From a bacterium (GTDB lineage: Bacteria; Patescibacteriota; Minisyncoccia; UBA6257; 02-FULL-45-10c), in assembly GCA_030700025.1 (NCBI GenBank), contig JAUYKI010000017.1, positions 2,748-66,747 of the forward strand: 64,000 nucleotides of DNA, in the 5' to 3' direction. A program made the position numbers and the translations under genes. This document shows, one piece after another, positions 36,625 through 57,582 of the stretch. The notes under the pieces were generated by a model. That model had not been told where the DNA came from and ran no database searches. It saw nothing but the letters and a program-made list of their open reading frames with translations. Numbering within the stretch: the stretch's first letter is position 1; every line of letters starts with the position of its first letter.

Positions 36625-36809
36625 AAAAGAAACTTTATTCTCCGTAGCGCGGGCTGAGCCTGCCTGCCGGTAGGCAGGGGCTGAGCGGGCAGGGTGTCCC
36701 GCGAAGCGGGACGAGCGAAGCCCGAGACCCAGTGAAAACTTCCCTCACTCTTGTACAAAAGTGAGGGACTGGGAGTTTGAACGGTAGCGGGAGAATAAAG
36801 TTTCTTTTC
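36625..36809. repeat. Family-B palindromic element, copy 2 (~185 bp); its right end overlaps the comFC stop codon
   Basis: GAAAAGAAACTTTATTCTC … GAGAATAAAGTTTCTTTTC arms. The internal hairpins differ from copy 1 but stay complementary. It also carries the CCCTCACTCTTG…CAAAAGTGAGGG hairpin and the GCCTGCCGGTAGGCAGG hairpin also present in family-A copy 1. Confidence 0.7.
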
Positions 36810-37543
36810 TAGCGTGTTTTAGCAATTACCAACGCGATTATTTTTTTGGCGCCGGCGGATTTTAAAGTTTTAGCGGCTTCGCGGATAGTGGCTCCGGAAG
36901 TGTGAACGTCGTCAACGAGAAGGATATTTTTTCCCACTATCAGTTCTGGGTAATTAACCGCGAAGCAGTTAATCACATTTTGCGCCCGTTCTTCATGATT
37001 CTTGGCAAGCGACTGGGTTTTAGTATTTTTAATTCTTTGAATCGGCTCCGTTAAATCTAATTTATAAAAATCAGCAACAATTTTCGCAATCAATTTTGCC
37101 TGATTAAATCCGCGTTCTTTTTCCCGATCTTCGTGAAGCGGGATTGGAACCACGGTAAAATTTCTAATATCTAAATCCAAATTTCTAAGATACGAGACTA
37201 GAATTTCGCCTAATGGCCTTTGAAGCCGCTGCCATTTTTTAAATTTAAATAATTTCAGCAAAGTCCGGATGGAATCGTTATCGTAATTAGTGGCGGCGGC
37301 CAAAAGATAAGGAGAATCTTTATGGCAGACCTTTTTATTATCCGCCAGGCGCAATCCGCAAACCGGGCAAAAAAGCGAAGTATTGAGGCGGATGCCGGCC
37401 CAGCACTCCGGGCAAAGATCGCCTTCAGCGTTTTTTTGGCAGTTTAAGCAGAGCGGAGGAAAGAGGATGTCCCACAGCCAGGTTTTCATTTTTTGGAGAT
37501 AGCTCATGTCTGTTATACTAATAATAGATTTAGAATAAGGCAA
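36809..37543 (-). CDS. comFC: ComF-family competence protein (double zinc ribbon plus phosphoribosyltransferase fold)
   Basis: N-terminal CLNCQ…CPECW…CPVCG zinc fingers; C-terminal PRTase motif VLLVDDVHTSGAT. Confidence 0.8.
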   Translation of the reverse strand: MPYSKSIISITDMSYLQKMKTWLWDILFPPLCLNCQKNAEGDLCPECWAGIRLNTSLFCPVCGLRLADNKKVCHKDSPYLLAAATNYDNDSIRTLLKLFKFKKWQRLQRPLGEILVSYLRNLDLDIRNFTVVPIPLHEDREKERGFNQAKLIAKIVADFYKLDLTEPIQRIKNTKTQSLAKNHEERAQNVINCFAVNYPELIVGKNILLVDDVHTSGATIREAAKTLKSAGAKKIIALVIAKTR

Positions 37544-37750
37544 TGGATTCCAATAACTAATTTCTAATATCTAATTTCTAATAAAATGACCGAAATCACA
37601 AACCACAAGCACCAAATCACAAACAAGCACCAATGACCAAAATCATAAATTTAAAACCCGTTTGGAATTTCTATTATTTGAATTTAGAATTTGTTTGTAA
37701 TTTGAGATTTGTAATTTGGAATTTTATCAGAAATTGTAAATTGTAAATTT

Positions 37751-38812
37751 ATGTCTTTTTTTGAAAAACTTCTTCATAACAAAACTTATTTCGGCGTGGA
37801 TATCGGCACGACCTCTATTAAAATTGTGGAATTAAAACAGGGAGGCCAGAAGCCGGGCCTGAAAGATTATTGCGTTTTGGAAAGCTACGCGCATCTGGAA
37901 AAATTTAACGCGGCCATTCAAACCAGCAATTTAAAAATGCTGGACCAGAAAACCGCGGAATATTTGAAAACCGCGATTCAGCAGATAGAGTCTAAAGACA
38001 TTGAAGCCATTGCTTCGGTTCCGACTTTTTCCGCTTTTACTACTTTGATTGAAATGCCGGCTATGTCGGAGGCGGATACGAGCAAGGCCATGGCATTCCA
38101 GGTTAGGCAGTATGTTCCTTTGCCGATTTCGGAAGTAACCACCGACTGGATAAAAATTATGGAAAAAAAGGATTCTGCCGGCAATTTAATCCAGCAAGTT
38201 CTGCTGATTTCCATTCCGAATGAAATTATTAATAAGTATAAAAATGTTTTTCAGTTGGCGGGCGTGAAATTAATCGCTTTAGAAGTGGAAGGATTGAGTT
38301 TGGCGCGGGCGCTGACTCTTGGTTCGCCGGAAGTTTCGCTGATTGTGGATATCGGATCCCGGTCTACCAGTATTCTTATCGCCCAAAACGGCTTTTTGAA
38401 GTTTGTCAGCCAGACGGATTTCGCCGGCAGTTCCTTAACGCAGAATTTGGCTGCCGGAACCAGCCTTTCTCCGCAGGAGGCCGAAGAAATGAAACGGCAG
38501 AGGGGCATTGTCTCGGGGGAGTTATCCACACTGCTGATACCGGTGCTGGATGCTATAATAAATGAGACGAGACTAGTCAAGGAAGATTTTGAAAAGAACT
38601 ATAAAGAGCCGGTCCAAAAGCTTATTTTGACCGGAGGCGGGGCTAATCTGAGCGGCATTGAGAAGTACTTTGGCGAGCAATTGGGCTTGCCGGCCGTTAA
38701 GGGCAATCCGCTGTCACGGGTGGATTATCCGGAAGAATTAAACCCCTTGCTTGGAGAATTGAATAATACTTTGGCGATTGCCGCCGGACTCGCTTTAAGG
38801 GATGTACACTAG
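37751..38812 (+). CDS. pilM: Type IV pilus assembly protein PilM (actin-like ATPase fold)
   Basis: N-terminal GVDIGTTSIKIVEL motif; 353 aa. Confidence 0.85.
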   Translation: MSFFEKLLHNKTYFGVDIGTTSIKIVELKQGGQKPGLKDYCVLESYAHLEKFNAAIQTSNLKMLDQKTAEYLKTAIQQIESKDIEAIASVPTFSAFTTLIEMPAMSEADTSKAMAFQVRQYVPLPISEVTTDWIKIMEKKDSAGNLIQQVLLISIPNEIINKYKNVFQLAGVKLIALEVEGLSLARALTLGSPEVSLIVDIGSRSTSILIAQNGFLKFVSQTDFAGSSLTQNLAAGTSLSPQEAEEMKRQRGIVSGELSTLLIPVLDAIINETRLVKEDFEKNYKEPVQKLILTGGGANLSGIEKYFGEQLGLPAVKGNPLSRVDYPEELNPLLGELNNTLAIAAGLALRDVH

Positions 38813-38830
38813 TTAAAAAAATAAATTGTA

Positions 38831-39373
38831 ATGGCGCTATTAAATCAAAAACCAATGGAGCACTACGTGCCGGAAACACCGGTTGCCGGAACACCGTGGC
38901 GCCTTTTTACTTACGCCGGATTGGCATTTTTGGCGTCTTTGTTGATTTATCTGGGATTAAGCATGGGCTATAGCGCTTACTTAAGTTCCCGGATTACCGC
39001 GGTGGAACAGCAATTAAAACAATTGGGAACTTCCATTTCCAAAGAAGATCAGGATAAGTTTGTCCGATTTTATTCCCAGCTGGTTAACTTTAATAAGCTT
39101 TTAGATAATCATATTTTATCCGCCGATACATTTTCTTTATTGGAAAAAAATACCAATCAAAAAGTCCGTTATACTAATTTTGATTTAAAAATTGACGAGC
39201 GGAAGCTTACTTTAGACGGTTCGGCTCTTTCTTATGAAATTTTGGCGCAACAGCTGGCGTCTTTTGCCGCCGATCCCGGCGTAGAGAACTACATGCTTAA
39301 TCAATCGCAAATGAGCGATGGAAGCGTAAAATTCAAGGCGGTATTAATATTAAAAAAGGAAGTTTTAAAATAA
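38831..39373 (+). CDS. PilN-like bitopic pilus assembly protein
   Basis: Single TM (LAFLASLLIYLGL) then coiled-coil/periplasmic domain; operon position follows pilM. Confidence 0.55.
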   Translation: MALLNQKPMEHYVPETPVAGTPWRLFTYAGLAFLASLLIYLGLSMGYSAYLSSRITAVEQQLKQLGTSISKEDQDKFVRFYSQLVNFNKLLDNHILSADTFSLLEKNTNQKVRYTNFDLKIDERKLTLDGSALSYEILAQQLASFAADPGVENYMLNQSQMSDGSVKFKAVLILKKEVLK

Positions 39374-39381
39374 GATGAATC

Positions 39382-39504
39382 CCACACATAACAAAGACTA
39401 TAGGATATTTAAGCTAATAACTATGATAGTAGAATTAAAATGTCACATTAAATTAAAAGGCAAGGATTTGCGGAAAACTTCGCAGTCTTTGTTATGTGTG
39501 GGAT
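39382..39504. repeat. Palindromic element exactly filling the pilN-pilO-like spacer (19-bp perfect arms)
   Basis: CCCACACATAACAAAGACT … AGTCTTTGTTATGTGTGGG. The right arm overlaps the start region of the downstream gene. Confidence 0.6.
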
Positions 39505-40078
39505 GAAAGCTTCTACTCAAAGAGCCTTGGGATTGTTGGGAACCGGACTATTGTTTGTCGGAGCGGCGGCGATTTTTGCTTTTTTATCGGTTCCGGCTTA
39601 TCAGGACATCCAGGATTTGAAATCCACGCTGTCGTCTAAATCAACATTATTTCAAAATCAATCCCGCGATTTGACCCAGGTTCAAAACTTGTTATCGCAA
39701 TATCAGGGAGTGGTCCGGCTGGAAGAATCTTTAAATTTGGCTCTGCCTACCAAAGAAGAGTCCGGAAGCATCGTGAATCAGCTGGATGTTATTACTAAGT
39801 CCAACGGCGTTTTAATTAAATCCCTCGGGCTGGATTATGTTCCGGCCGGACGGACCGCCGGGACCGCTTTGGTAAAAAATGTTTCTACTTTGCGGCTGAC
39901 AATAAAATTAGCCGGTTCTTATTCCGCGTTTAAAAAAGCTTTAGCCGCGCTGGAAACCAATATTCGCATCATGGATTTAGTGAGTTTGAAGATGGAGCCG
40001 GTTAGCGCCGCGCCCGGCCAGGAATCCGCGGATTTATTTGATTACACCTTAGTTATTAATACTTATTATCAATTGTAA
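39503..40078 (+). CDS. PilO-like bitopic pilus assembly protein
   Basis: MKASTQRALGLLGTGLLFVGAAAIFAFL TM segment followed by a periplasmic domain. The track start at 39494 lies inside the palindrome arm. Confidence 0.5.
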   Translation: MKASTQRALGLLGTGLLFVGAAAIFAFLSVPAYQDIQDLKSTLSSKSTLFQNQSRDLTQVQNLLSQYQGVVRLEESLNLALPTKEESGSIVNQLDVITKSNGVLIKSLGLDYVPAGRTAGTALVKNVSTLRLTIKLAGSYSAFKKALAALETNIRIMDLVSLKMEPVSAAPGQESADLFDYTLVINTYYQL

Positions 40079-40101
40079 AATTTATTAGAGATTTAAATAA
40101 T

Positions 40102-40392
40102 ATGGCAATTACATTTGAAAAAGAAAAAAAACCGTTTGGCATTGTTCGGCTTGTTATCGTGATAGCGGCGGTGGTGTTTATTGTCGGCGGAGCCTACTTT
40201 TTATTCTTCGCTTCAACTCCGGGCATAGAAGCTTTAGTTCCTTCGGAACAAAGGTTAGCCACCCAGATTTCTAAATTAGAATTGAATACCCAGCCGGCCG
40301 TGGAAGCTTTTACTTCTAACCGCCTTAAAAGATACGCCGGTCCGCCTTCGGTTGGACAAGTTGGCAGATTAAATCCATTTGTCCGATTTTAG
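40102..40392 (+). CDS. Small bitopic protein in the pilus operon (PilP-like position)
   Basis: 96 aa with one TM helix. Confidence 0.4.
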   Translation: MAITFEKEKKPFGIVRLVIVIAAVVFIVGGAYFLFFASTPGIEALVPSEQRLATQISKLELNTQPAVEAFTSNRLKRYAGPPSVGQVGRLNPFVRF

Positions 40393-40396
40393 GAAT

Positions 40397-40520
40397 GGAT
40401 CCCGTTAGAGATAGGCCGTCAAAGGCGGCCGTAGCTCGTCCGTTCTAATGGCGCTCAGAGTTTAAAATAAAAACAAAGGTTAATAATATAAATCTAATTT
40501 AGTTATCTCTAACGGGATGG
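40397..40520. repeat. Family-C palindromic element; the right arm contains the pilB ATG
   Basis: GGATCCCGTTAGAG … CTCTAACGGGATGG; the pilB ATG is at 40517. Confidence 0.65.
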
Positions 40521-42250
40521 ATGCTCAAGTTTTACTTAAAGCTCTTGTTGATAAGGAACTTCTAAAACAGGATCAGGCGGATAAGCTGATTCAGGAATCT
40601 TCGGCTGGGCAAAAATCCGCTGAAGATTTAATTTACGAAAACCGGCTGGTGGACGAAACCGAAGTGGCGAAAACCAAAAGCCAGCTTTTAAAAATACCTT
40701 ATAAGAAAATTTCGGCGGATACTCTGGATAAAGAATTTTTAAAAGTTATTCCGATTGAAACCGCCCAAACTTATAAAATAATTCCTATTTCCCGGACGGA
40801 AAATATGCTGGTGGTGGGAATGGTGAATCCGGACGACCAAAAAGCCCAGGACGCGCTCCGGTTTGTCGCTAAGCAATTGCACTCCAATCTTGGAGTTTAT
40901 TTGATTTCACACGGCGATTTGGACGCAGTCTTAAAAAAATATTCTCCGTTTAAAGATGAAGTAGAAGCGGCAGTGCGGGCTTTGGGGACTAGGCCGGGCA
41001 GGAAAGTCGGCCAGGCAATTCAACTGGAAGAGGGAACCGCGGTTACGGAAGAAGCGCCGGTAATTAAAATTGTCGCTTCAACGCTTAGAGAAGCGGTCAA
41101 CGTCGGAGCTTCGGACATTCACGTTGAGCCAGAGCGGGAAAAATTCCGGATTCGTTTCCGGATTTCCGGAGATTTGCAGACCATCAGCGAAATGCCGATT
41201 GAATTGCACCAGCCGATAGTTTCCCGCATTAAAGTTATGTCCAAGTTAAAATTAGATGAAAACCGCGTTCCGCAAGACGGCCGGTTTCGCAGCCAGGTAT
41301 CGGGCCGGGACATTGATTTCCGGATCGCGACTTTTCCAACTCCAGCCGGAGAAAAAGTGGCAATCCGGGTTCTGGATTCTTCTACCGGCTTACGGACTTT
41401 AAATGAATTGGGATATAGCGATCGGAATGTAAAAATTGCCATGGAGGCGATTGAGCGCCCGTTTGGCACCGTGGTCATTACCGGTCCGACCGGTTCGGGA
41501 AAATCCACCACTCTTTATTCGTTGATGCAGATTTTAAATCAGCCGGACGTTAACATCGTCAGCTTGGAAGATCCGGTGGAGTATTATATTGACGGCGCCA
41601 ACCAGTCGCAGGTTCGGCCGGAAATCGGCTATGATTTCGCCGCCGGTTTGCGGCAAATTTTGCGGCAAGACCCGGACGTGATTATGGTTGGAGAAGTGCG
41701 GGACGTGGAAACTGCCACTTTGACCATCCACGCCGCTTTAACCGGACACATCGTATTAACCACCTTGCACACTAATAATGTAGTGGGCGTAGTGCCCCGC
41801 TTATTGGATTTAAAAGTAGACGCGTTTTTATTGCCGCCGGCGGTAAATTTGATGGTGGCCCAGCGCTTGCTTTCCAAGCTTTGCCCGAAATGCAAAAAGC
41901 CCGAACCTGCTCCGGGAAATATCGCCGAAATGATCAAAAAAGAATTGGAAAAATTGCCGGCAGACGTCAGGGCGGAATTAAAATCTAAAGAACCGTATAA
42001 AATCTATCGGTCGGCCGGATGCGCTTCTTGTAAAAATAAAGGGACAGCCGGGCGGATGGCCATTTCGGAGCTTTTAAAAATGACTCCACAATTGTCGGAA
42101 ATTATCAGCGCCGGCCCGACCGAGAACCGGATTTTAGAAGAGGCTAAGCGCCAAGGAATGGTAACGATGCGGCAAGACGGAATTATTAAAGCCCTGGACG
42201 GATTATTGGGAATGGAGGAGGTATTGCGAGAGACTGCGGAGCTGACCTAA
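40517..42250 (+). CDS. pilB: Type IV pilus assembly ATPase PilB (GspE family)
   Basis: N-terminal T2SS-E N domain; Walker A GPTGSGKST; Asp/His boxes; tetracysteine CPKC…CASC. Confidence 0.9.
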   Translation: MDAQVLLKALVDKELLKQDQADKLIQESSAGQKSAEDLIYENRLVDETEVAKTKSQLLKIPYKKISADTLDKEFLKVIPIETAQTYKIIPISRTENMLVVGMVNPDDQKAQDALRFVAKQLHSNLGVYLISHGDLDAVLKKYSPFKDEVEAAVRALGTRPGRKVGQAIQLEEGTAVTEEAPVIKIVASTLREAVNVGASDIHVEPEREKFRIRFRISGDLQTISEMPIELHQPIVSRIKVMSKLKLDENRVPQDGRFRSQVSGRDIDFRIATFPTPAGEKVAIRVLDSSTGLRTLNELGYSDRNVKIAMEAIERPFGTVVITGPTGSGKSTTLYSLMQILNQPDVNIVSLEDPVEYYIDGANQSQVRPEIGYDFAAGLRQILRQDPDVIMVGEVRDVETATLTIHAALTGHIVLTTLHTNNVVGVVPRLLDLKVDAFLLPPAVNLMVAQRLLSKLCPKCKKPEPAPGNIAEMIKKELEKLPADVRAELKSKEPYKIYRSAGCASCKNKGTAGRMAISELLKMTPQLSEIISAGPTENRILEEAKRQGMVTMRQDGIIKALDGLLGMEEVLRETAELT

Positions 42251-42284: not shown

Positions 42285-43352
42285 ATGGCTGATTATAAGG
42301 CGAGATTAATAGATTTACTTTCCGAGGCGGTCAAGCAAGACGCTTCGGATTTGCATATTGCGGTAGGTCAAAAGCCGATGCTTCGGAAGGACGGAAGTTT
42401 GGTAGCTTTAGAAAGTGAATCGGTTCTGAACCCTAAGGACGCCGAAGGATTGGTGTTGGCGTTATTAAACCCTGATCAAAAAAACAAATTCTTGGAAGAA
42501 AAGCAGTTAGATTTTGCGTATGACCTGGATGGCAGAGCCAGGTTCCGTATTAACGCCTATTTTCAAAGAGGATTTATGTCGGCGGCGCTCCGTTTAATTT
42601 CGGCGAAAGTTAAAACATTGGAAGAATTGGGCTTGCCGATGGTGTTGAGGGAATTTGCCAAATTATCCCAAGGGCTCTTGCTGGCAGTCGGTCCGGCTGG
42701 ACAAGGAAAGTCCACGACTTTAGCGGTGGTAGTAGATGAAATCAATCGCCAGCGCGCCGACCATATTATTACCATTGAAGACCCGATTGAATATTTGTTT
42801 GAACAAAATAAAAGCATTATTTCCCAGCGGGAAGTTCGTTTGGATACTTTAACGTTTCACGACGCCTTGCGATCGGTTTTGCGGCAGGATCCGGATGCAA
42901 TTATGATCGGTGAAATGCGCGACGCGGAATCTATTGCCAGCGCTTTAACCGCCGCGGAAACCGGCCATTTGGTTCTTTCCACCTTGCATACTAATTCGGC
43001 TTCTCAGACTATTGACCGGATTGTGGATAGTTTTCCGTCCGGCCAGCAGCCGCAAATTATTTCTCAGCTGGCATCCACTTTGATAGGCATTGTTTCCAAA
43101 AGATTAATTCCTAAAATTGGCGGCGGACGGGTTCCGGCTTGCGAAATTATGATAATGAATCCGGCAATCCGGAATTTAATCCGGGAAAAGAAGTTTTTCC
43201 AGATAGATAACGTTATTGAAACCAGCAAAGGCGAGGGCATGATCAGCTTAAACCGTTCTTTATCGGAGCTGGTGAAGGCCAAGCAAATTACTCCGGCGAA
43301 CGCGGAATTATATTCCATTAGCCCGAAAGAATTAAAATTGATGTTAAAATGA
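42285..43352 (+). CDS. pilT: Twitching-motility retraction ATPase PilT
   Basis: Walker A GPAGQGKSTT and the AIRNLIRE motif; 355 aa. Confidence 0.9.
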   Translation: MADYKARLIDLLSEAVKQDASDLHIAVGQKPMLRKDGSLVALESESVLNPKDAEGLVLALLNPDQKNKFLEEKQLDFAYDLDGRARFRINAYFQRGFMSAALRLISAKVKTLEELGLPMVLREFAKLSQGLLLAVGPAGQGKSTTLAVVVDEINRQRADHIITIEDPIEYLFEQNKSIISQREVRLDTLTFHDALRSVLRQDPDAIMIGEMRDAESIASALTAAETGHLVLSTLHTNSASQTIDRIVDSFPSGQQPQIISQLASTLIGIVSKRLIPKIGGGRVPACEIMIMNPAIRNLIREKKFFQIDNVIETSKGEGMISLNRSLSELVKAKQITPANAELYSISPKELKLMLK

Positions 43353-44557
43353 AATTTAAATACGTTGCTAAAACTAAAACCGGCGAGCTGCAAACAGGAT
43401 TTATTGAATCGCAGGACCGCAATTCCGCCACTAGCGCTTTGGTTAGCCACGAGCTGGCAGTTTTAAGCTTAGAATCCGCGGATGTGCCAAAGTGGTACGA
43501 ACAATTTTTAAATTTATTTAAAAGAGTAAGCAGTACCGACCTGATGGTTTTTACCCGCCAATTCGCCACTTTATTGGATGCTAAAATTTCCTTGGGCGAT
43601 TCTTTAAAAAATCTTCATCGCCAAACCCGCAATGTTGCCTTAAAAGAAGCGGTATTTGATATTTCGGCGGACATTGAAGCCGGCTTGTCTTTATCGCAGG
43701 CCTTGGAGCGGCACTCCGCGATTTTTCCGGACTTCTACGTTAACATGGTGCGTTCGGCGGAAATTACCGGCCGGATGAGCGAAGTTATGATGTTTTTGGC
43801 GGATTATCTGGAAAAGACCCAGGCGACTTCCACTAAAGTCCGGAACGCCATGATTTATCCGGTAGTGGTAATTATTTTGCTGGTTGGCGTGATGCTGGTG
43901 ATGGTAGGTTTTGTTTTTCCTAAGTTAATTCCGGTTTTTGAAGAATCAAACGTGGAATTGCCGTTAATCACTAAAATAATTTTTGCCATTGGAACCTTTA
44001 TCAGCAATTGGTGGTGGCTGGTTTTGCTGGCTTCTATTGCCGGAGCTTATTTTCTGGTTTCTTACTTAAAAACCAAAGAGGGCAGGGTAGTGTTAGACGA
44101 AGTTTTAATGAAATTGCCGGTTTTTGGAACTATGCTTCGGAAGCTGTATATTTCTAGATTTGCCGAACTGACCAGCGTTTTGATAAAAGGCGGAACTCCG
44201 ATAGCCCAAAGTTTGGGAATTGCCGGCAATACCGTGGGCAGTTTTATTTATCGGGACCAGATTTTAGAAATTGCCGAAGCGGTCCGGCAGGGACAGCTGA
44301 TGTCCCAGGCGCTGGAAGAACGGCAGGTGTATTTTCCGGTTTTAGTCAGCCAGATGGTTTCCGTGGGCGAAAGCACCGGCAAGCTGGAAGAGTTATTAAG
44401 CCGGGTATCAAGCTTTTACACAAGAGAAGTGGATGACTTGGTTAATAATTTGGTAGAATTAATTCAGCCCCTTCTGATGGTAGTAATCGGCGTGGCAGTA
44501 GGAATTTTATTTGCTTCAGTATTGCTGCCAATTTTCAGCTTGGTGCAGACTTTCTAA
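43349..44557 (+). CDS. pilC: Type IV pilus platform protein PilC (GspF family)
   Basis: Two T2SS-F domains; 402 aa; 4-bp overlap with pilT. Confidence 0.9.
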   Translation: MKFKYVAKTKTGELQTGFIESQDRNSATSALVSHELAVLSLESADVPKWYEQFLNLFKRVSSTDLMVFTRQFATLLDAKISLGDSLKNLHRQTRNVALKEAVFDISADIEAGLSLSQALERHSAIFPDFYVNMVRSAEITGRMSEVMMFLADYLEKTQATSTKVRNAMIYPVVVIILLVGVMLVMVGFVFPKLIPVFEESNVELPLITKIIFAIGTFISNWWWLVLLASIAGAYFLVSYLKTKEGRVVLDEVLMKLPVFGTMLRKLYISRFAELTSVLIKGGTPIAQSLGIAGNTVGSFIYRDQILEIAEAVRQGQLMSQALEERQVYFPVLVSQMVSVGESTGKLEELLSRVSSFYTREVDDLVNNLVELIQPLLMVVIGVAVGILFASVLLPIFSLVQTF

Positions 44558-44932: not shown

Positions 44933-45382
44933 ATGAAAAATAAAAAAGGTTTTACATTAATAGAAATTTTAATCGTTATCTCCATTATCGGGCTTTTGGC
45001 CTCGGTAGTGTTGGTGAATTTGGGAGGTTTTAGGGCTAAAGGAAGAGATTCGCGCCGGATTGCGGACTTACGGACTTTGCAAAATACCTTGGAACTTTAT
45101 TTTGGAGTTAACAATAAGTATCCAAGCGCCATAACGGAATTAATTAGTCCGGAATTGGGAGTTACCAGGTTACCTCAAGATCCAGGCACTACTTTGGATT
45201 ACTCCTATTGTTATAAAAATGACAGCGGCGGCAATCCAACCAGTTATATTGTAGGCGCTAAGTTGGAGGGTAGAAATGTGGCTTTGGATTCCGATGAAGA
45301 TGACACCGCTGGCTACACTTGCAGCGCGGCCACGGATTGTTCTGACGCGGCGAATGTCTGGGGTTACTGCATAAAGTTCTAA
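44933..45382 (+). CDS. pilA: Type IV major pilin (class III signal peptide)
   Basis: Prepilin leader MKNKKG^FTLIEILIV with Glu+5; 149 aa; C-terminal Cys pair. Confidence 0.8.
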   Translation: MKNKKGFTLIEILIVISIIGLLASVVLVNLGGFRAKGRDSRRIADLRTLQNTLELYFGVNNKYPSAITELISPELGVTRLPQDPGTTLDYSYCYKNDSGGNPTSYIVGAKLEGRNVALDSDEDDTAGYTCSAATDCSDAANVWGYCIKF

Positions 45383-47806: not shown

Positions 47807-48076
47807 AGGCGTTCTTTGCTATAATATAAGCGTTATATGAATAAGAATTTTTACGCGTTAGGAGTGTTGCTTTTGACGGGAGTTTGGCTGGCCGGAACCG
47901 GTTTTTTCCTGCAAGAGAATGGAATTTCCTTAAATTGGGATTTTTCTCCGAATTATGCCCAACGGCCTTTGCCGGTTCCGGCGCCGGTAGCGTCAGCGGA
48001 GAACTTTTTGAGCAATAATCTCTTTGCGTGGATTTTCCTCACGCACTAAGGAGGACTTTGTGTTATAATCTAAATA

Positions 48077-50476: not shown

Positions 50477-50477
50477 T

Positions 50478-53453
50478 ATGAATATCCGGAATTATAAATT
50501 TTTAATACTTTTCTTAATCGGCCTTTGGGGCGCCGGTAATTTGGCCTTTGCGCAAATTACGCCGGACCCTGGTGAGCACGCGGTTAGAGTTTATAAATCC
50601 GGCACCGGCAGTGGTTTGGTAACAGACCAGTATTCCCAAATTGACTGCGGGAACGATTGCCAGGGGAATTATATTGGGGCTGCTTCCACCTGGGTTACTT
50701 TGGAACCTTTTCCTTCTCCTAACAGCTCTTTTGCCGGTTGGTACGGTTGTGACTCCGTAAATACCATGGTTATATTGCCTGATTTGCCGACTTGCTCAGT
50801 TAATACGAGCCCCTTCGTTCCTAGATCAGTTAACGCGATTTTTAACTCTAACACCCCGTGGCATCAAGCTAAATTAACCGTGACTACATCGGGCGATGGC
50901 GGGGGATCGGTATTTTCCAATCCCGGATTTATCAGTTGCGGAGCGGTTTGTTCCGATAATTTTTCGAATCCTTCTTATCCTTTATTTACCGCCACTCTTA
51001 TCAACACCGGTTCCTTAGGGTCATTTACCAATCAGCAGGTAATACATATTGTTGATAGCAGTGGTAGAATCACAGTGGGCGGAAATAGGCTTCAGACCCT
51101 CAATTCGGAAGGTGTGACCAATCCTCAGCAAACTATTATTGACATAGCGGACGGATTTATAAACGTATCGCCGACTATTAAATATATTTACGCGCTGGGA
51201 TATAGGGGGAGTGGAAATATTGCTGAATATCTTTTGGACGTGATTAATCCTTCTGCTCCTCAGGGAGCGCAAGCTAGTGCGCCAGAGGTGGTGAATCGTA
51301 TTCCGCTCCCCATAGATTCAACTGGAGGGGAAGATTACAGCGTTTACTCTAAAATTGCTCTGGCCGGAAATTTTGTTTATATAACTCGTTGGTCAGGAAC
51401 TTCGGTCAGCGCGGGTGGCAGTGGAGGCGCTTTATTGATTTTTGATATATCTGATCCGTTGAATCCGGCGCAGGTCGGGTTCATTGCTCCCCGCTTCAGT
51501 CCTGGCTATGGAATCGCGGCGATTAATAATCCTTTTATTGGAAATTATGCTTATATGGGACAGCAGCATCAGTTCTCTGTAATTGATGTTTCCAGTCCGG
51601 CTAGTCCGGCAGTTGTCGGCACTGTCGGCGGCACCGGCCTATTTAAGGGCGTTTTTAATGAAGTGGCTGAAGCCTTTCCGTATGTTTATGTTTCCAGCGT
51701 GAATGCTTCGGATAATTCCAATACGCTTTATATTATAGACGTTAGTAAGCCGAACAGCCCGGCGTTGATTAGCGCGACACCGATTGATTATTTTAACGGC
51801 GATTTAAGGCCGGCCGTCGGAGGAAAGCTTCTTTTTATCGGTTCCACGGTTTATGATGTTTCTGATCCGTTTCATCCCAGAAAAATCGGCCAAGGGCCGG
51901 GAGGCGTTCAATATGGGGGCGATACTTCTTTTCAAGTTGGAAGTTTGAATGAAGGCAATGATTATGTTGTAACCGGAACCAACGCTACGGGATTCGGCAT
52001 CTACTCGATTAAAAGAACTTTTGTTACGGGTACTGGTTGGGTTCCCACTTATGACCTTTTATCTTTTGCTCCCGGATTGGGAATTTATCCTAACCCGACT
52101 GTTAGTTTATCCGGAGAGCCGGAAGACGATTCGATTTTGGGCGCTTGGTCCGGAGATGTTCCGGGAACTTGCGCCAACAACGCGTCGTGTTTAGTAACTG
52201 CTGTTTTGGGCGCGGAAACTAACGCAGATGCCAGATTTGATGCCGCCGCGGCGCTCGCGCCTACTTCGGCAACTTTAACCGTTACTAAATCCGGAAATGG
52301 ATCCGGCCATGTATCTGATTCGGCTTTGGATTCTTCTTCGTTAGGCGGCGCTTCTTTGGGCGGCGGATCATTGGGTTTTGTTTCCGGGGGAATTGATTGC
52401 GGCGGGGATTGCGATGAAACTTACCCAACGGACACCAGCGTAATTCTTTTGGCAACGCCAAGCGCCGGATCGGATTTTGTAAAATGGAATGGCTGTGTAA
52501 TCGGTGCGGTAATGAAAGATGACGGAGCGCTTTGGAATCCGGCTACTTTGGCGGCTAAACAATCTAACGGCGCTAATGCTTGGGACGGAAGAAATTACAG
52601 CGCCTTGGCTTTCCAAAACAAGCTTTGGGTTTTAGGAGGCGGGAGCACCTTAGGCCAAGTATGGTATTCGGCTGACAACGGCATTACTTGGGCGCAGTAT
52701 ACTCGGGCCTTTATCGCTCCGTCGTCGTGGGCTCCGTGGTGGTCAACTAAATTCGGATTCTCGGCGTTGAGCTACGGAACCAAGATGTGGGTTTTGGGCG
52801 GAACGGAGGGCGGTAGTTCTTATACTAATGAAGTTTGGAGTTCTTTTGACGGCCAAAATTGGAGTCAGGGGCTGAATGCCGATTGGTCTCCGCGGGTTAA
52901 CTTTGCCGCAACCAGATTTAACGGCTCTATGTGGGTATTGGGCGGAAATGCTAAAGAAAATAATAGTTTTGTAAATAAAAATGATGTCTGGTCTTCGGTT
53001 GGCAGTTCCGGATATTGGAGTCCTGTAAATGTATCTGCCGCTTGGTCTGCCCGACAAGGCCATGCCGCAGTCGCTTTTAATGGCCAATTATGGGTTTTAG
53101 GCGGATTGGACGCGGGCGGTTATAAGAATGACGTTTGGTCATCTTCCAACGGAACTGATTGGATTCAAAAAAATTCTTCGGCGCCTTGGCCGGCTCGGGC
53201 TTTTCATAAAGTTTTGGTTTTTGATAATAAACTTTGGGTGATGGGCGGTTCGGGCTCTTTTCAGCCGGCCGATTTTAAAAATGATGTGTGGTATTCCGTG
53301 GACGGCGTTAATTGGATTCAGTCGGGATTGGCGGATTGGCCGGCTCGGTTTGATTTTGGCGCTACGGTTTTCAATAATAAAATGTGGATTTTGGGCGGAA
53401 CGGTCGGGTCCAATTTATATGTAAATGACGTTTGGTATTCGGCGGCGCATTAA
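50478..53453 (+). CDS. Giant secreted protein combining InlB B-repeat, LVIVD beta-propeller and C-terminal Kelch-like beta-propeller repeats
   Basis: Signal peptide. LVIVD-type blades (LLIFDISDPLNP, FSVIDVSSPASP, LYIIDVSKPNSP). Six repeats of ~48 aa of the form W..R..H…VFNNKLWVLGG…KNDVWSS.DG..W; 991 aa. Confidence 0.7.
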   Translation: MNIRNYKFLILFLIGLWGAGNLAFAQITPDPGEHAVRVYKSGTGSGLVTDQYSQIDCGNDCQGNYIGAASTWVTLEPFPSPNSSFAGWYGCDSVNTMVILPDLPTCSVNTSPFVPRSVNAIFNSNTPWHQAKLTVTTSGDGGGSVFSNPGFISCGAVCSDNFSNPSYPLFTATLINTGSLGSFTNQQVIHIVDSSGRITVGGNRLQTLNSEGVTNPQQTIIDIADGFINVSPTIKYIYALGYRGSGNIAEYLLDVINPSAPQGAQASAPEVVNRIPLPIDSTGGEDYSVYSKIALAGNFVYITRWSGTSVSAGGSGGALLIFDISDPLNPAQVGFIAPRFSPGYGIAAINNPFIGNYAYMGQQHQFSVIDVSSPASPAVVGTVGGTGLFKGVFNEVAEAFPYVYVSSVNASDNSNTLYIIDVSKPNSPALISATPIDYFNGDLRPAVGGKLLFIGSTVYDVSDPFHPRKIGQGPGGVQYGGDTSFQVGSLNEGNDYVVTGTNATGFGIYSIKRTFVTGTGWVPTYDLLSFAPGLGIYPNPTVSLSGEPEDDSILGAWSGDVPGTCANNASCLVTAVLGAETNADARFDAAAALAPTSATLTVTKSGNGSGHVSDSALDSSSLGGASLGGGSLGFVSGGIDCGGDCDETYPTDTSVILLATPSAGSDFVKWNGCVIGAVMKDDGALWNPATLAAKQSNGANAWDGRNYSALAFQNKLWVLGGGSTLGQVWYSADNGITWAQYTRAFIAPSSWAPWWSTKFGFSALSYGTKMWVLGGTEGGSSYTNEVWSSFDGQNWSQGLNADWSPRVNFAATRFNGSMWVLGGNAKENNSFVNKNDVWSSVGSSGYWSPVNVSAAWSARQGHAAVAFNGQLWVLGGLDAGGYKNDVWSSSNGTDWIQKNSSAPWPARAFHKVLVFDNKLWVMGGSGSFQPADFKNDVWYSVDGVNWIQSGLADWPARFDFGATVFNNKMWILGGTVGSNLYVNDVWYSAAH

Positions 53454-53456
53454 AAT

Positions 53457-55103
53457 ATGGAAAACTGGAAACAAAAAATTTATTTATTGTTGGCGTTGGC
53501 GGGAATTGGATTTATCGCGGGAACCGTTTTTGCCGCGGATGCCGGGGTTCGCTGGTTTCAAACCGATCCGGTCGCCGGGGCAATCTGGACTGCCAGAAAC
53601 GGACACTCGGCTCTGGTTTTTAACAACAAAATGTGGATTTTAGGAGGAACTCTCTCGCCGGGTTATAAAAATGATGTTTGGCTTTCTTTTAATGGCATCA
53701 ATTGGGTTCAACGGACTCCGTCCGCCGCGTGGCAGGCCAGGACCGAACACGCGTCCCTAGTCTTTAATAATAAAATGTGGGTTTTGGGAGGATCTATCTC
53801 GACGGGTTTTAAAAATGATGTTTGGTCTTCCGCGGATGGATTTACTTGGAATTCAGAAACTGCCGCGGCCGCCTGGCCGGCAAGAGATCGCCACGCGTCC
53901 CTAGTTTTTAATAATAAAATGTGGATTTTAGGAGGATCTACCTCGGCGGGTTCGAAAAATGACGTTTGGTCTTCCGTGGACGGAATTACTTGGACGCAAG
54001 AAACTGCTTCCGCCGGCTGGTCTCCGCGTTTCGACTTAGTAGCTCTCGTTTTTAATAACAAGATGTGGGTTTTAGGCGGCAGTGGTTCTCTGAATGATGC
54101 TTGGTCTTCTTCAGATGGAGTTACGTGGACCAGGGTCAGTCCGGCAATTGGCGCTGATTGGCCGGGGCGGTCCGGGCATACCGGAGTGGTTTATGACGGA
54201 AAAATGTGGATTTTTGGCGGACAAAGAGCAAATACCATTTTTAATGATGCTTGGTATTCCGTGGACGGAATAAGTTGGTCTCAGGCGTTATTAGCGGCTG
54301 ATTCTCAATGGGGCGCCCGATGGAATCACGCTTCTTTAGTCTTTAATAATAAAATGTGGATTTTGGGCGGTTCTGGCGGCCCTAATAAAAATGATATTTG
54401 GCATTCCCAGCAGGATAATCTTCCGGTGGAAGCGTGCGTGATTACCAGTGATAGAAATCGGACTGTTGACGCGGAATTTAAAGGCCAGCTTTATACGGTT
54501 ACGGTGGTTAGCATTAATCAGGACGGAGCCGGAAAAGGCGCGGTTAGTTCCACGGATAATAAAATCAGCGATTGCCAAACGATTTGTTCCGCCGAAAATT
54601 ATGCTTACAATTCCAGTGTTGCTTTAAACGCCATGGCCGCCGACGGTTCGGAATTTGACCATTGGGAAGGGCCAAGCCCTTGCGATAACAGCGCCGAATT
54701 GAGCTGTTCTTTGACTTTAACCGGCGATGTAACTGTTTACGCGGTATTTAAATCGTTGATGGCCGCTTGCGTGGTGGAAAAATCAGTTACCGCGAACTTT
54801 GCCACTTCTTTTCCGACTTGTACGCTGACGATTGCTCCGCAAGGAACAAATGCCAGTCAGGCAATTATTTCTTGGACCACCACTAATAATCCGACTAGCG
54901 CTGTTATAGATGATGGCGTTGGTGCGCCAGTAGCGGTGACTATCCCGCCGGCCAGCGGTAGCATGACGATTACTCCGCCTGGCAACACTACTTATATTAT
55001 GACCGTCACGAATAACGCCGGCAGCCGCACTTGCAGCGCTCAGGCTTCAGCGGCGCCCGGAAGATTTCAATTTAAAGATATTCGCGAAATTCTCCCGTTT
55101 TAG
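53457..55103 (+). CDS. Secreted Kelch-like beta-propeller protein (8 blades) with a C-terminal InlB B-repeat-like domain
   Basis: N-terminal TM/signal anchor. Eight near-identical repeats ARxxHASLVFNNKMWILGG…KNDVWSSxDGxTW. C-terminal Cys-pair domain. Confidence 0.7.
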   Translation: MENWKQKIYLLLALAGIGFIAGTVFAADAGVRWFQTDPVAGAIWTARNGHSALVFNNKMWILGGTLSPGYKNDVWLSFNGINWVQRTPSAAWQARTEHASLVFNNKMWVLGGSISTGFKNDVWSSADGFTWNSETAAAAWPARDRHASLVFNNKMWILGGSTSAGSKNDVWSSVDGITWTQETASAGWSPRFDLVALVFNNKMWVLGGSGSLNDAWSSSDGVTWTRVSPAIGADWPGRSGHTGVVYDGKMWIFGGQRANTIFNDAWYSVDGISWSQALLAADSQWGARWNHASLVFNNKMWILGGSGGPNKNDIWHSQQDNLPVEACVITSDRNRTVDAEFKGQLYTVTVVSINQDGAGKGAVSSTDNKISDCQTICSAENYAYNSSVALNAMAADGSEFDHWEGPSPCDNSAELSCSLTLTGDVTVYAVFKSLMAACVVEKSVTANFATSFPTCTLTIAPQGTNASQAIISWTTTNNPTSAVIDDGVGAPVAVTIPPASGSMTITPPGNTTYIMTVTNNAGSRTCSAQASAAPGRFQFKDIREILPF

Positions 55104-55125
55104 TTAGAAGGTTTTAACTCGAAGT

Positions 55126-55253: not shown

Positions 55254-55325
55254 AAGATCCTTGACGGGGATTTTTTAATGCCATAAAATATACTGGCGTT
55301 CTTTAACAAAGCAACAAGGTAGCCT

Positions 55326-55363
55326 TAAATCCGCTAATAGCGGATTGGGCAAGGGAGACGAAA
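55326..55363 (+). promoter_or_regulatory. Conserved leader hairpin plus Shine-Dalgarno (paralogue of the leader at 35781-35819)
   Basis: TAAATCCGCTAATAGCGGATTGGGCAAGGGAGACGAAA followed by ATG. Confidence 0.5.
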
Positions 55364-56008
55364 ATGCGAAAGATGATTTGTTCGGGCTTGATGGCCACGG
55401 CGTTAGTGGTTTTGTCGGCAGTTCCGGTTTTGGCTAATGACGACGAAGAAGTTTTGTTGGACAGCGAAGATACTTCCAGCACCGAATATACCGGAGTCAG
55501 AGAAATGTCTCTGGGCGCCCGGCTGTTTCCTTACGCGCCTTTGCGCGGCGGCATGGATTTCTTGTGGCGTCCCAAGTGGGGAATTTGCGCGGCCCAGATT
55601 GAAAACATCAATTATACCGCGGAAGTAAATGGCCAGCCGATTCATTGTACCGGCGCTGAACTTCATTTCGGCGGCGGCATCTGGTCCAATATGGAAAAAA
55701 CTAATTGGTGGGGCTATCATATTTATTTCAGCATGGTTTGGCCGCTAACGTGGGTTAGGAACGTTCAGGGTTCGACTAGATTTGCTTTTGGTAATGGAAA
55801 ATCTTTGGGCCTCGGATTGGATTTTTATCCGCGCATTTGGCGGGGTGGAACGATTGTTAGAGGAGATAAATTTGTCAGTTATTTCGCGGACGTTCAAGCG
55901 GCTTCCCGGTTATTGATAGTAGACTGGGGAGGTCAGCACAGCGACCGATTCTCATCTTCTATGTTTAAAAATATCACTTTCCAGGTCGGAGCCAGATACT
56001 GGTTTTAA
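55364..56008 (+). CDS. Secreted protein with a C-terminal aromatic (…ARYWF) beta-barrel-like signature
   Basis: Signal peptide MRKMICSGLMATALVVLSAVPVLA. Alternating hydrophobic pattern in the C-terminal half and a terminal Phe. A terminator hairpin follows at 56028-56058. Confidence 0.5.
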   Translation: MRKMICSGLMATALVVLSAVPVLANDDEEVLLDSEDTSSTEYTGVREMSLGARLFPYAPLRGGMDFLWRPKWGICAAQIENINYTAEVNGQPIHCTGAELHFGGGIWSNMEKTNWWGYHIYFSMVWPLTWVRNVQGSTRFAFGNGKSLGLGLDFYPRIWRGGTIVRGDKFVSYFADVQAASRLLIVDWGGQHSDRFSSSMFKNITFQVGARYWF

Positions 56009-56118
56009 ACTTTAAATAAGCCCCCCGACCCCCATCCTAATGGGGGCTTTGCTTTTTTAGAAGAATAATGTTATTTTATTAACAGTTTTCAGAACTTTAA
56101 AAACTCAAGGAGATAAAA

Positions 56119-57093
56119 ATGAAAACGACAGCGCTGGCGTTGATTTTGCTGGCCGGATCTGCCGGGGCAACAATTGGAACTAATTCCGGATTAACCGCGC
56201 TTTATATTTCTGGCAGTGAAATTTACGTCACGAGCGCTTCGACCAATACCGTAAAAATCTTCCGTTTTTCTCCGCCGTCAACTTTAGCGCAGGTCGGGAT
56301 TCCTGCCTCCACGGATCAGGAACCGGTCTTTATTTCGGTTCCAAACCCCTATGCTTATGTTTTGAATCGGGGAGCCAAGACATTGCAGACCTTTATCGCG
56401 GACGATAATTTCTTATTGCCATTAGGATCGGTTCCGGTCGGATTTAATCCGACTTCGGCCGTGGTTCGGATACCGCATATTCTTATTACTAATTCCGGAT
56501 CTAATTCTTTGCAGGCGCTGGATGTTTCCTGCAATTCCCGCCCGGTAACTATCGGGCGAATTTCTACCGGTTCGGTTCCGACATCGTTATACGCGGAGGG
56601 AAAATATGCTTTTGTGACTTGTTCCGGAGAAGATCTGTATCAGATTTTTAATATCGGCAAATTGCGGTGGGGAATATCATTAACCGGATCAATTAAGACC
56701 GATGAGGGTCCGGTGGCAAGTTATGTGGCGGGTCCGAATGCTTTCGTCATTAATACGATTGCCAATACTCTGCAGGCGTTCAATGTTTCTGATCCGGTGA
56801 AGCCCGCGGAATTAGGCTGGGTTCGCACTAGCGTGGGCCCGATTGCGATTACTGGCAGCGGAAACTTATTATTTGTCGCTTGCCGGTTTTCCAATACTTT
56901 GGAAATTTTTGACGCGTCTAATCCCGCGAAAATGGTTTTGCTTCACGGGATTGGCGTGGATTACGGCCCAACGGCAGTAGCGGTCAATGGCCCCTATGCC
57001 TTTGTGGCTTCCCACAAAATGCTCCAAGTGTTTGACGTTTCCGATCCGCTTCGCAAACCGCCGGTTCTGGTCGCTTCCATTACAGTGAATTAA
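56119..57093 (+). CDS. Secreted LVIVD-repeat beta-propeller protein
   Basis: Signal peptide; repeated blades YAYVLNRGAKTLQTF, NAFVINTIANTLQAFNVSDP, LLFVACRFSNTLEIFDASNP, YAFVASHKMLQVFDVSDP. Terminator at 57103-57135. Confidence 0.7.
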   Translation: MKTTALALILLAGSAGATIGTNSGLTALYISGSEIYVTSASTNTVKIFRFSPPSTLAQVGIPASTDQEPVFISVPNPYAYVLNRGAKTLQTFIADDNFLLPLGSVPVGFNPTSAVVRIPHILITNSGSNSLQALDVSCNSRPVTIGRISTGSVPTSLYAEGKYAFVTCSGEDLYQIFNIGKLRWGISLTGSIKTDEGPVASYVAGPNAFVINTIANTLQAFNVSDPVKPAELGWVRTSVGPIAITGSGNLLFVACRFSNTLEIFDASNPAKMVLLHGIGVDYGPTAVAVNGPYAFVASHKMLQVFDVSDPLRKPPVLVASITVN

Positions 57094-57162
57094 AGTTTAT
57101 TCCCCCTAGACTGCGGTCAGGGGGAATTTTTATTAGGATAGGTTCTTGGTATAATTTAAGTA

Positions 57163-57582
57163 ATGAGAAATGAACGCGGGCAGGTAATGCTCTTAACTGT
57201 TTTGCTTTTATCTGGAACTATTTTAAGCGCCACTACCATTGCCGGCTTATTAATGCTTTATCAAATCCGCCAAGCAACGGATATCGCCAATTCTACCAAA
57301 GCTATTTATGCCGCGGACACGGGGATAGAAAGGCGGGTATATGATATTTTTCTGGATCCGGACGGCCTTTGCAGTTTAAGCGAGCCATCGTTAGACGGCA
57401 CTTTAGACAATGGCGCCGCTTTTCAAGTAGCTTGTGATAAGCAAACTCAGACCAACGCTGATGGCAGCAAAACGGAGACTATCACTATCAGATCTACCGG
57501 CAATGCCAATAAAAATTATCGAGCGCTGGAGACGGTTTTGGCTAGAGATATTCCACCTCCGCCGCCTCCACTGGCGCCTTAA
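57163..57582 (+). CDS. PilX-like minor pilus assembly protein
   Basis: PilX-type N-terminus RGQVMLLTVLLLSGTILSATTIAGLLM; 139 aa with a poly-Pro C-terminus. Confidence 0.5.
   Translation: MRNERGQVMLLTVLLLSGTILSATTIAGLLMLYQIRQATDIANSTKAIYAADTGIERRVYDIFLDPDGLCSLSEPSLDGTLDNGAAFQVACDKQTQTNADGSKTETITIRSTGNANKNYRALETVLARDIPPPPPPLAP

Follow-up and report, generated by a model that had tools for sequence, protein, structure and literature searches.

How bacterial episymbionts belonging to the candidate phyla radiation (CPR) recognise their hosts and keep hold of them is still an open question, and nearly all these organisms are uncultured. The question is raised here by a type IV pilus locus on contig JAUYKI010000017.1 of the NCBI GenBank assembly GCA_030700025.1, within a stretch of 64,000 nucleotides (contig positions 2,748 to 66,747; referred to as the window), in which five secreted proteins, among them three large ones named G1, G2 and G3, are encoded between three minor-pilin genes (mp1 to mp3) and a gene for a PilX-like pilin of 139 amino acids (aa), followed by ligA. 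A first-pass annotation of the window had suggested that the three large proteins may be pilus-tip or pilus-associated cargo of what might be a CPR-type organism. Sequence comparison confirmed the source as a metagenome-assembled genome (MAG) of the Paceibacteria (CPR), because the homologues of ligA and of the PilX-like gene come from Paceibacteria and Patescibacteria MAGs. We report that in many Paceibacteria insertions recur at the junction before the PilX-like gene, here called the slot, and that a number of the proteins encoded there share a C-terminal tail; we hypothesize that G3 may dock on the pilus tip by means of this tail, a proposal for which we see the balance of arguments as about level.

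A search with ligA returned 321 relatives, out of which 80 ligA-centred loci were kept. All window proteins were compared against these, families were assigned by scans of Pfam and NCBIfam, and the coordinates of named genes were checked against the listing of open reading frames (ORFs). All 80 loci stem from uncultured MAGs, mostly labelled Paceibacteria, Parcubacteria or Patescibacteria group (identity up to 73%), and the 139-aa protein has named homologues from Patescibacteria and Paceibacterota. The ancestral arrangement displayed by relatives is co-oriented (pilM-N-O, a 96-aa ORF, pilB-T-C-A-D, mp3, mp2, mp1, PilX-like gene, ligA), with gaps under 200 bp from pilD through the minor pilins and the PilX-like gene to ligA (median 87 bp between the minor-pilin block and the PilX-like gene, 17 bp between the latter and ligA). 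Given the order mp3-mp2-mp1-139-aa gene-ligA, the 139-aa gene is the fourth minor-pilin gene. In the window and in its nearest relatives (loci L012, L017, L020 and L083) the three-pilin block is inverted and parted from this fourth gene. Insertions of more than 1 kb are found in 12 of 37 loci at the junction between the minor pilins and the 139-aa gene and in 4 of 68 loci between this gene and ligA, with one inside the minor-pilin block (L015) and a total of two over the junctions that lead from pilM to the minor pilins; the neighbouring junction of ligA and gatC is likewise variable (17 of 58 loci). The cargo of the slot consists mostly of large secreted proteins of varied make-up (B-repeat, Kelch, S8 subtilase, fn3/DUF1554, Big_2/PKD, Ig, and many without a Pfam match), including a reprolysin-like domain in L015.

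On 24 slot proteins in 18 loci (G3 and 23 others) we find the tail phi-x-E-[VI]-x-P-(x)-COOH, with Glu and Pro invariant, Val or Ile at position +1, mostly Arg, Lys or Gln at position -1, and a hydrophobic or aromatic residue at position -2. A linker rich in Gly, Pro, Ser and Thr usually precedes it, no membrane segment follows the motif, and the tail is the very C-terminus. G3 ends in …FQFKDIREILPF, where Glu545 and Pro547 are the invariant residues; endings of the others are …REILPR, …KELLPF, …MEIIPR, …EEVIPQ, …IEVIP, …REVRP, …KEVKP, …YEIRP, …KEIKP, …YETRP, …KEVAP and …KEIPP. By the strict pattern, 10 of 30 slot ORFs of at least 250 aa bear the tail, whereas none of the 456 that lie outside the slot in these loci does (Fisher 1.6e-13); the 456 include the equally variable insertions between ligA and gatC. 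Relaxing the pattern to E-[ILVMTF]-x-P-(x)-COOH yields matches in 24 out of 896 ORFs of at least 200 aa, as compared to about 2 expected from composition (our own estimate), and all 24 are located on the same strand as, and upstream of, the PilX-like gene or ligA. The payloads that carry the tail differ (Kelch, B-repeat, S8 subtilase, fn3, Big_2), and because it is attached to unrelated last domains the tail behaves like a portable tag. It is not restricted to adhesin-like proteins, since in a Harrisonbacteria MAG (L005) two S8 subtilases with Ig-like and B-repeat domains (2237-5101 and 5986-8718), next to the PilX-like gene, end in …FYEIRP and …LREVKP.

As the pattern had been derived from the data, it was tested on three later loci reached via homologues of the PilX-like protein. 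Two of these encode tail proteins immediately before the PilX-like gene, namely L089 with one of 583 aa (…GGVQEVLPQ) and L091 with two (…SRTEVKP and …VRKEVKPQ); the slot of L090 holds no tail protein. These data bear on the possibility that the tail has no function, being either a relic inherited from a single ancestral C-terminal domain or a pattern that arose by chance in post-hoc matching. The pattern was indeed defined from the first examples, and in several of the proteins the tail is preceded by a common Ig-like domain (…C.N[VI]DG…), so that part of their similarity is plain homology. Yet the tail is also found behind last domains that are unrelated and behind long low-complexity linkers (L012, L017, the subtilases of L005, and L089), Glu and Pro stay invariant amid variable surroundings, the matches exceed the estimated expectation and all lie in one place, and the tail recurred in new loci obtained after the pattern had been fixed. 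We therefore regard a non-functional tail as highly improbable.

A second conserved C-terminus, …C-E-Q-N-P-N-G-A-G-C-(P/S/Q)…, is displayed by other slot proteins of 500-1000 aa without a Pfam match (L039 4671-7166, L043 5525-8545, L049 5334-8348, L046 27-1553, L048 232-2940 and L040 5495-7588). These are often accompanied by a single-pass membrane protein of about 150-190 aa (…VTISYV…) and by a lipoprotein ending in …[IV]-x-[LV]-[IV]-P-x-x.

In the window, the inserted module spans 8.3 kb and encodes five Sec-secreted proteins between the inverted mp3-mp2-mp1 block and the PilX-like gene, all of which are named "hypothetical protein" in their database records (MDP3999735.1-MDP3999739.1; locus tags Q8P76_04085-04105). 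The first-pass annotation had called G1, G2 and G3 giants; they are three large secreted repeat and propeller proteins as described there, though with 799, 991 and 548 aa they are large for a CPR genome rather than giant. The domain families that it named for a check were found, with B-repeats in all three, LVIVD in G2 and Kelch in G2 and G3. The InlB B-repeat family PF18998 (Flg_new_2) is matched by G1 with 150 bits and by G3 with 25.6 bits (gathering cut-off 23.6), and a local repeat profile counts 8 units in G1, about 4 in G2 (one of them split) and 1 in G3, carrying paired cysteines. In the split repeat of G2 (window 50874-52232, residues 133-587) the profile positions 1-36 fall on residues 133-167 and 30-78 on residues 536-587; judging from this alignment, the LVIVD propeller of about 370 residues appears to be inserted within a B-repeat domain. 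Each of the three proteins has a single N-terminal hydrophobic segment with an A-x-A-type site and no other hydrophobic segment. Neither an LPXTG followed by a membrane segment nor a C-terminal membrane anchor was found in G1-G3, nor LRR, GW or another known anchoring module, nor a glycosidase or other enzymatic domain (Pfam). Readings of these proteins as glycosidases or as sortase-anchored surface proteins, either of which would have spoken against the first-pass interpretation, were accordingly rejected. Also rejected was a single gene split by stops, because each of the three has its own signal peptide, and the three-gene layout with its distinct C-termini is kept in L083.

Conservation of this module in relatives was likewise followed. 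The locus L083 (NCBI GCA_040961635.1) comprises pilB-T-C-A-D, three inverted minor pilins, then proteins of 260 aa (B-repeat), 1221 aa (B-repeat/Kelch) and 1329 aa (Kelch/B-repeat), an LVIVD propeller (61% identical to that of the window), a homologue of the 214-aa secreted protein (27%), the PilX-like gene (52%), ligA (71%), gatC and gatA; the right-hand half of this arrangement recurs in L082 (JGI). The LVIVD protein, 61% identical in L083 and 47% in L082, is the best-conserved member of the inserted module; its gene adjoins the PilX-like gene in L082, and the barrel-like (214-aa) gene intervenes in L083. Housekeeping and core pilus proteins of the window are 68-75% identical to those of L083 and L082, as compared to 30-37% for the large proteins, which are domain-shuffled. 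Three C-termini are kept despite this divergence, namely CVI[NK]FT of G1 (L083 counterpart), NDVWYSxxH of G2 (L083 and L082) and the tail of G3. The module holds its place between the inverted minor pilins and the PilX-like gene, as the first-pass annotation would predict; in both relatives the large proteins lie by the pil genes and not far from them, which favours linkage of the two sets of genes.

The wider distribution of G3 was addressed by an exhaustive HMMER search with its residues 345-548. Out of 1813 matches, nearly all generic B-repeat proteins, only two (P0105 and P0138) align with G3 through to the C-terminus; the C-terminal module of G3 is 46-48% identical to these, and their contigs were retrieved. 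A metagenome scan with the C-terminal alignment of G3, P0105 and P0138 returned two loci with ordinary B-repeat proteins and without pil genes, which is uninformative on the large proteins. Word-indexed searches with an 11-sequence C-terminal alignment and with G3 345-548 gave no match and missed G3 itself, so that they are silent on distribution.

The synteny data allow another interpretation, by which the large proteins act at the surface or are secreted independently, having accumulated at a recombination-permissive break between two conserved operons, and the tail is a Paceibacteria-specific signal for retention or sorting in the envelope (for example for wall or S-layer binding, or for C-terminal processing) that is unrelated to the pilus. 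This would agree with the signal peptides, which are of Sec type and not of prepilin type, with the variable junction of ligA and gatC (17 of 58 loci), with unrelated genes in the slot, with the abundance of B-repeat proteins outside pilus loci, with subtilases bearing the tail, and with a Glu/Pro signature that has the look of a recognition motif rather than of a generic strand. However, the tail occurs in none of the 456 non-slot ORFs of at least 250 aa, although these include the insertions between ligA and gatC; insertions occur inside the minor-pilin block (L015) but almost nowhere else in the pil operon; and the genes of all 24 tail proteins run in the direction of the PilX-like gene. 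Furthermore, no membrane segment stands behind the motif, unlike in all sortase/exosortase-type signals, and module and pilus genes have remained together over about 30% divergence of housekeeping proteins. Such independent proteins appear to us somewhat unlikely, even if they are a serious contender.

A pilus-bound function of the tail would require a suitable partner, for which the 139-aa protein is the candidate. Its family displays an invariant G-Q followed by a hydrophobic helix without Glu at position +5; in the window member VMLLT follows G6-Q7, and +5 is Leu. The first-pass name "PilX-like" holds for the family more than for the protein of the window, which has no match to PilX_N (PF14341) at E up to 1; this domain is matched by 10 of 30 aligned family members (best 3e-5), and the AlphaFold2 model computed from a 71-sequence alignment is that of a pilin, with a predicted local distance difference test (pLDDT) score of 90. 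The model shows the lollipop form, with a helix at residues 5-64 and then a four-stranded meander sheet, the last strand of which (118-130) is an exposed edge. Comparison of the model with the Protein Data Bank (PDB) by Foldseek gave no hit with an E value of 0.001 or below; among pilins, a Streptococcus sanguinis minor pilin came closest (7o5y, TM 0.44), and a profile search of PDB sequences with the family gave no match. On the grounds of its sequence features and this predicted fold, we assign the 139-aa protein as a probable PilX/PilK/GspK-type pilin. Family members with extra modules are known from L031 (8634-9791, Laminin_G_3 lectin) and L018 (3146-3790, type I dockerin), which argues for a use of this subunit in presenting binding modules. 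Another member (L047 9354-9989) has an Ig-like domain of the kind found at the C-termini of slot cargo.

Some further observations on the C-termini of this family may be added. Pro is among the last two residues in 32 of 65 homologues (L002-L081), versus 10% of background ORFs. Many PilX-like proteins (e.g. L081 7939-8334, L039 9511-9954) end in an extension of 10-16 residues, …G-A-T-[ST]-T-[LFY]-P, instead of which the subclade of the window has a poly-proline end (…IPPPPPPLAP).

A model for a docking mechanism is provided by PilC/PilY1, where the last ~10 residues supply an extra beta-strand that joins the sheet of the PilK/PilX pilin, which has no Glu+5 (Ellison et al., PNAS 2026, PMC13533445). 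This strand is cradled by PilJ, needed for retention at the tip, and licenses assembly, and systems without an adhesin of the PilC/PilY1 type provide the strand in cis (PMC13533445). Based on this, we hypothesize that G3 may be a functional analogue of the PilY1/PilC tip adhesin that docks by its tail, and that the slot may be a store of exchangeable tip cargo, a view that we consider as probable as its negation. By analogy, G3 would be exported by Sec, and its tethered tail would dock on the apical PilX/PilK-type pilin lacking Glu+5. A likely mode would be that the tail adds a strand to the exposed edge of the small beta-sheet of the PilX-like pilin beside the PilW/J-type pilin, as for PilC/PilY1, so that the Kelch propeller and the B-repeat of G3 would be carried outwards at the tip of the pilus. 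The four other inserted proteins (G1, G2, the LVIVD propeller and the 214-aa protein) could be co-conserved partners, where G1 and G2 might form a B-repeat stalk with propeller heads. The likely role would be binding to a host cell or surface, followed by pilT-driven retraction, and rapid domain shuffling may change the binding specificity. A role in host attachment or DNA uptake, as had been put forward in the first-pass annotation, is a possibility suggested by other work on CPR (PMC12206443).

Several points weigh against this hypothesis. The tail pattern is data-derived, with independent finds only in L005, L009, L011, L018, L031, L089, L091, P0105 and P0138, and the tail counts cover the retrieved loci, so that tails may occur elsewhere in these genomes. 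G1 and G2 have no tail. The slot also holds unrelated genes, such as NUDIX and AdoMet_dc in L090 and polytopic membrane proteins in L004, L036 and L064, and it is empty in most loci, which argues that cargo encoded in cis is not needed for the pilus. A PilY1/PilC domain of Pfam is found in none of the inserted proteins; because PF05567 (Neisseria_PilC/PilY1) is absent from G1, G2, G3 and the LVIVD protein at Pfam E up to 0.01, these are not members of that family by sequence. As regards the proposed contact, the invariant Glu and Pro and the hydrophobic pattern of the tail are not clearly those of a beta-strand, and the RE[IL]LPF subtype may equally be a short amphipathic helix. The model of the PilX-like protein already holds a complete four-stranded sheet, and its conserved last strand (R-A-F-E) is present with or without tail cargo nearby. 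The idea that a long C-terminal extension of the PilX-like protein (…GATSTLP) would replace tail cargo by a strand in cis, as in GspK, was rejected for lack of association: with cargo 4 C-termini are extended vs 6 short, and without cargo about 27 vs 22. The first-pass reading of the large proteins as tip or pilus-associated cargo is hence partly supported, by the CPR origin, the pilus locus, the binding-type modules of the Sec-secreted large proteins, the slot and module synteny and the tail of G3, and is weakened by the tailless G1 and G2, the lack of PilY1/PilC family membership and the unrelated slot genes in L090.

Enzymes among the cargo, i.e. the S8 subtilases of L005 and the reprolysin-like domain of L015, may also suggest that the slot proteins are not stable tip adhesins but substrates which the pilus would carry or push across the wall or S-layer and then let go (as TcpF and CofJ of type IVb pili, or as in type II secretion), with the tail as a transient recognition peptide. 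The flexible linker that bears the tail would suit such a role. In type IVb pili, secreted proteins reportedly dock on the minor-pilin tip via a short terminal peptide, a precedent in its favour. On the other hand, B-repeat, Kelch, LVIVD and Ig architectures typify binding proteins, not released effectors, and the cluster is type IVa-like (pilT, and minor pilins of the PilH-I-J-K type), the setting in which stable beta-strand addition is shown. Release of this kind hence seems improbable to us.

Tip docking as hypothesized here can be compared with several known systems. PilY1/PilC proteins are likewise large, Sec-exported, non-pilin beta-propeller proteins encoded within or beside a minor-pilin operon, next to a PilK/PilX-type pilin without Glu+5, and the critical element lies in their last ~10 residues (PMC13533445), as compared to the conserved terminal tail of G3, for which docking is predicted by analogy. 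In contrast, the proteins here lack PF05567, have Kelch and LVIVD propellers and differ in their payloads, which are interchangeable; the gene mostly stands before and not after the PilX-type gene, a secretin is missing, and the invariant Glu...Pro signature of the tail is not described for PilY1. In Nanosynbacter lyticus TM7x (Saccharibacteria), PilX2 belongs to a CPR type IV pilus and is a PilX-type subunit without a canonical PilD site, fused to a beta-propeller; it is required for normal host binding and was likened to PilY1 (ISME J 2025, PMC12206443). There, an RCC1-type propeller is part of the pilin and the organism is of a different CPR class, whereas the present organism is known from sequence alone. 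The ingredients of both systems recur in the locus but are arranged differently: the PilX-type pilin of 139 aa is bare, propellers and repeats belong to secreted proteins of their own that are encoded next to it, and a terminal tail is conserved. MshQ of the Vibrio cholerae MSHA pilus, a non-PilY1 protein of about 1200 aa beside PilIJK homologues, was proposed as a non-homologous equivalent whose C-terminus would serve the PilK homologue, as predicted from gene position and modelling (PMC13533445); it differs by its unrelated sequence, its diderm host and by being a single conserved protein versus the variable cargo slot described here. The modular minor pilins PilB and PilC of Streptococcus sanguinis (PMC8179133) also display adhesive modules on a type IV pilus of a monoderm, comparable to the PilX-like members with Laminin_G_3 or dockerin; the module is covalently within the pilin there, unlike the separate Sec-exported proteins of the window. 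Finally, G1-G3 hold bona fide PF18998 repeats with paired cysteines, as do InlB B-repeat (Flg_new_2) surface proteins of Firmicutes and Bacteroidota, but are without LRR, GW and LPXTG, and their repeats occur together with propellers, one of which appears to split a repeat in G2. Type IV pili and large adhesin-like proteins were noted together in Parcubacteria genomes in 2015 (PMC4508563). A cargo slot within the minor-pilin set of Paceibacteria and a shared tail were not found in the literature searched.

Table 1. Features of the pilus locus and its inserted module (window positions, 5' to 3'; a slash marks the site within pilin leader sequences).
Feature	Position	Strand	Assignment and remarks
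comFC-type competence gene	36809-37543	-	Pfam DZR_2 7e-11 and Pribosyltran 1e-8; divergent from pilM
pilM	37751-38812	+	Pfam PilM_2, 1e-35
pilN-like	38831-39373	+	position only; between pilM and pilO in relatives, 27-44% identity
pilO-like	39494-40078	+	Pfam PilO PF04350 22.1 bits, cut-off 22; weak GspM match
96-aa ORF between pilO and pilB	40102-40392	+	same place in at least 12 relatives
pilB extension ATPase	40517-42250	+	Pfam T2SSE 2e-122 and MshEN
pilT retraction ATPase, 355 aa	42285-43352	+	Pfam T2SSE 3e-47
pilC platform protein	43349-44557	+	Pfam T2SSF, two copies, 1e-55
Major pilin pilA, KKG/FTLIE	44933-45382	+	Pfam N_methyl 3e-9
pilD prepilin peptidase	45390-46175	+	Pfam A24_N_bact and Peptidase_A24
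Minor pilin mp1 (PilW/GspJ position)	46301-46810	-	N_methyl 4e-8; weak ComGF/GspJ-type matches; third gene of ancestral mp3-mp2-mp1-PilX order
Minor pilin mp2 (PilV/GspI position), G/EVMVE	46807-47310	-	weak TIGR02523 PilV match, E 0.006; synteny
Minor pilin mp3 (FimU/GspH position)	47282-47806	-	N_methyl; weak GspH match 3e-4
70-aa ORF, one hydrophobic segment	47837-48049	+	upstream of G1; gene also called on Logan contig L001
G1, 799 aa	48077-50476	+	signal peptide, N-terminal domain of ~105 aa, eight InlB-type B-repeats; Flg_new_2 1e-44
G2, 991 aa	50478-53453	+	signal peptide, B-repeat, split B-repeat with LVIVD propeller inside (aa 168-535), B-repeat, C-terminal Kelch propeller
G3, 548 aa	53457-55103	+	signal peptide, Kelch propeller aa 30-320, B-repeat 351-431, Ig-like domain, linker, C-terminal tail
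G3 C-terminal tail FQFKDIREILPF	55065-55100	+	fits slot-specific motif phi-x-E-[IV]-x-P-(x)-COOH
214-aa secreted protein, ends …GARYWF	55364-56008	+	homologues in L083 and L091, always in slot
LVIVD/YVTN beta-propeller, secreted, 324 aa	56119-57093	+	LVIVD 3e-11; directly upstream of PilX-like gene
PilX/PilK/GspK-type minor pilin, 139 aa (PilX-like)	57163-57582	+	G6/Q7; fourth minor pilin of ancestral operon; just before ligA in 68 loci
ligA, conserved right-hand boundary	57614-59665	+	Pfam DNA_ligase_aden 4e-85 and further domains

The locus as a whole is a complete, secretin-less, retractile type IV pilus cluster with pilM, the pilN-like and pilO-like genes, pilB, pilT, pilC, pilA, pilD and four minor pilins, adjoined by comFC (Table 1). 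Its major pilin is a canonical one, with a class III signal of the form G/F-x-x-x-E. The contiguous order from comFC to ligA given by the first-pass annotation stands, with all named ORFs at the expected positions and nearly all identities backed by Pfam; its "pilN-like" gene is upheld by conserved synteny, though the protein has no family match in Pfam or NCBIfam. A secretin domain (PilQ) was not found by Pfam among the ORFs of the locus; the absence of the secretin was already noted for Parcubacteria and is typical where the outer membrane is missing (PMC4508563). Additional to the genes described before are the conserved 96-aa ORF and the 70-aa ORF. The former has no family match in Pfam or NCBIfam and may be an unrecognised component of the pilus machinery.

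The three inverted minor-pilin genes are convergent with pilD. A 29-nucleotide inverted repeat, GTGTT(G)TATAATCTAA(G/A)TA, is located at 47788-47816 and 48048-48076, directly before the ATG of the divergent genes mp3 and G1, and TATAAT lies only 8-10 nucleotides before the two starts, as it does in L083 at 5383-5432. Because the leader repeat stands directly before it, the ATG at 47788 (MTRG/FTIIE) is probably the true start of mp3, rather than the GTG at 47806. The sequence of these leaders suggests matched, possibly leaderless promoters of the minor-pilin and large-protein operons.

The 214-aa protein, for which the first-pass annotation had considered a beta-barrel, has no match in Pfam, NCBIfam or the PDB, and its single-sequence AlphaFold model is unusable (pLDDT 30). 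Its family comprises secreted, Gly/aromatic-rich proteins of about 190-210 aa with the conserved end G-x-[RS]-[YC]-W-F (also L083 15335-15943 and L091 2108-2665), seen in the pilus cargo slot only (3 of 1826 ORFs). The end F-Q-V-G-A-R-Y-W-F is conserved in L083 and L091 and resembles the C-terminal beta-signal of outer-membrane barrels, yet the lineage is secretin-less and generally taken to be without an outer membrane. The remaining window content is housekeeping genes. Adjacent genes for a citrate synthase family protein and for an MmgE/PrpD protein (2-methylcitrate dehydratase family) at 28958-31586 are unusual for a reduced CPR genome. A 570-aa DUF11-repeat protein at the left edge (69-1781) is a probable surface protein, distant from the pilus genes and without the tail.

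Extending the hypothesis beyond G3, we tentatively envisage a tip display that may be general in Paceibacteria and perhaps in other CPR, a possibility which we rate short of probable. Sec-exported proteins with the phi-x-E-[VI]-x-P tag on a flexible linker would load onto the PilX/PilK-type pilin and be carried through the envelope, and adhesins, propellers and even proteases would be swappable via one slot. If docking by the tail is true, the principle of beta-strand addition would extend to a secretin-less pilus with non-homologous, interchangeable cargo, and the tail would allow a simple pick-out from metagenomes of candidate host-binding proteins, which are now listed as "hypothetical" and evolve too fast for homology searches. 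If the general tip display is true as well, the tag would be a sequence-readable marker for the host-contact proteins of uncultured episymbionts.

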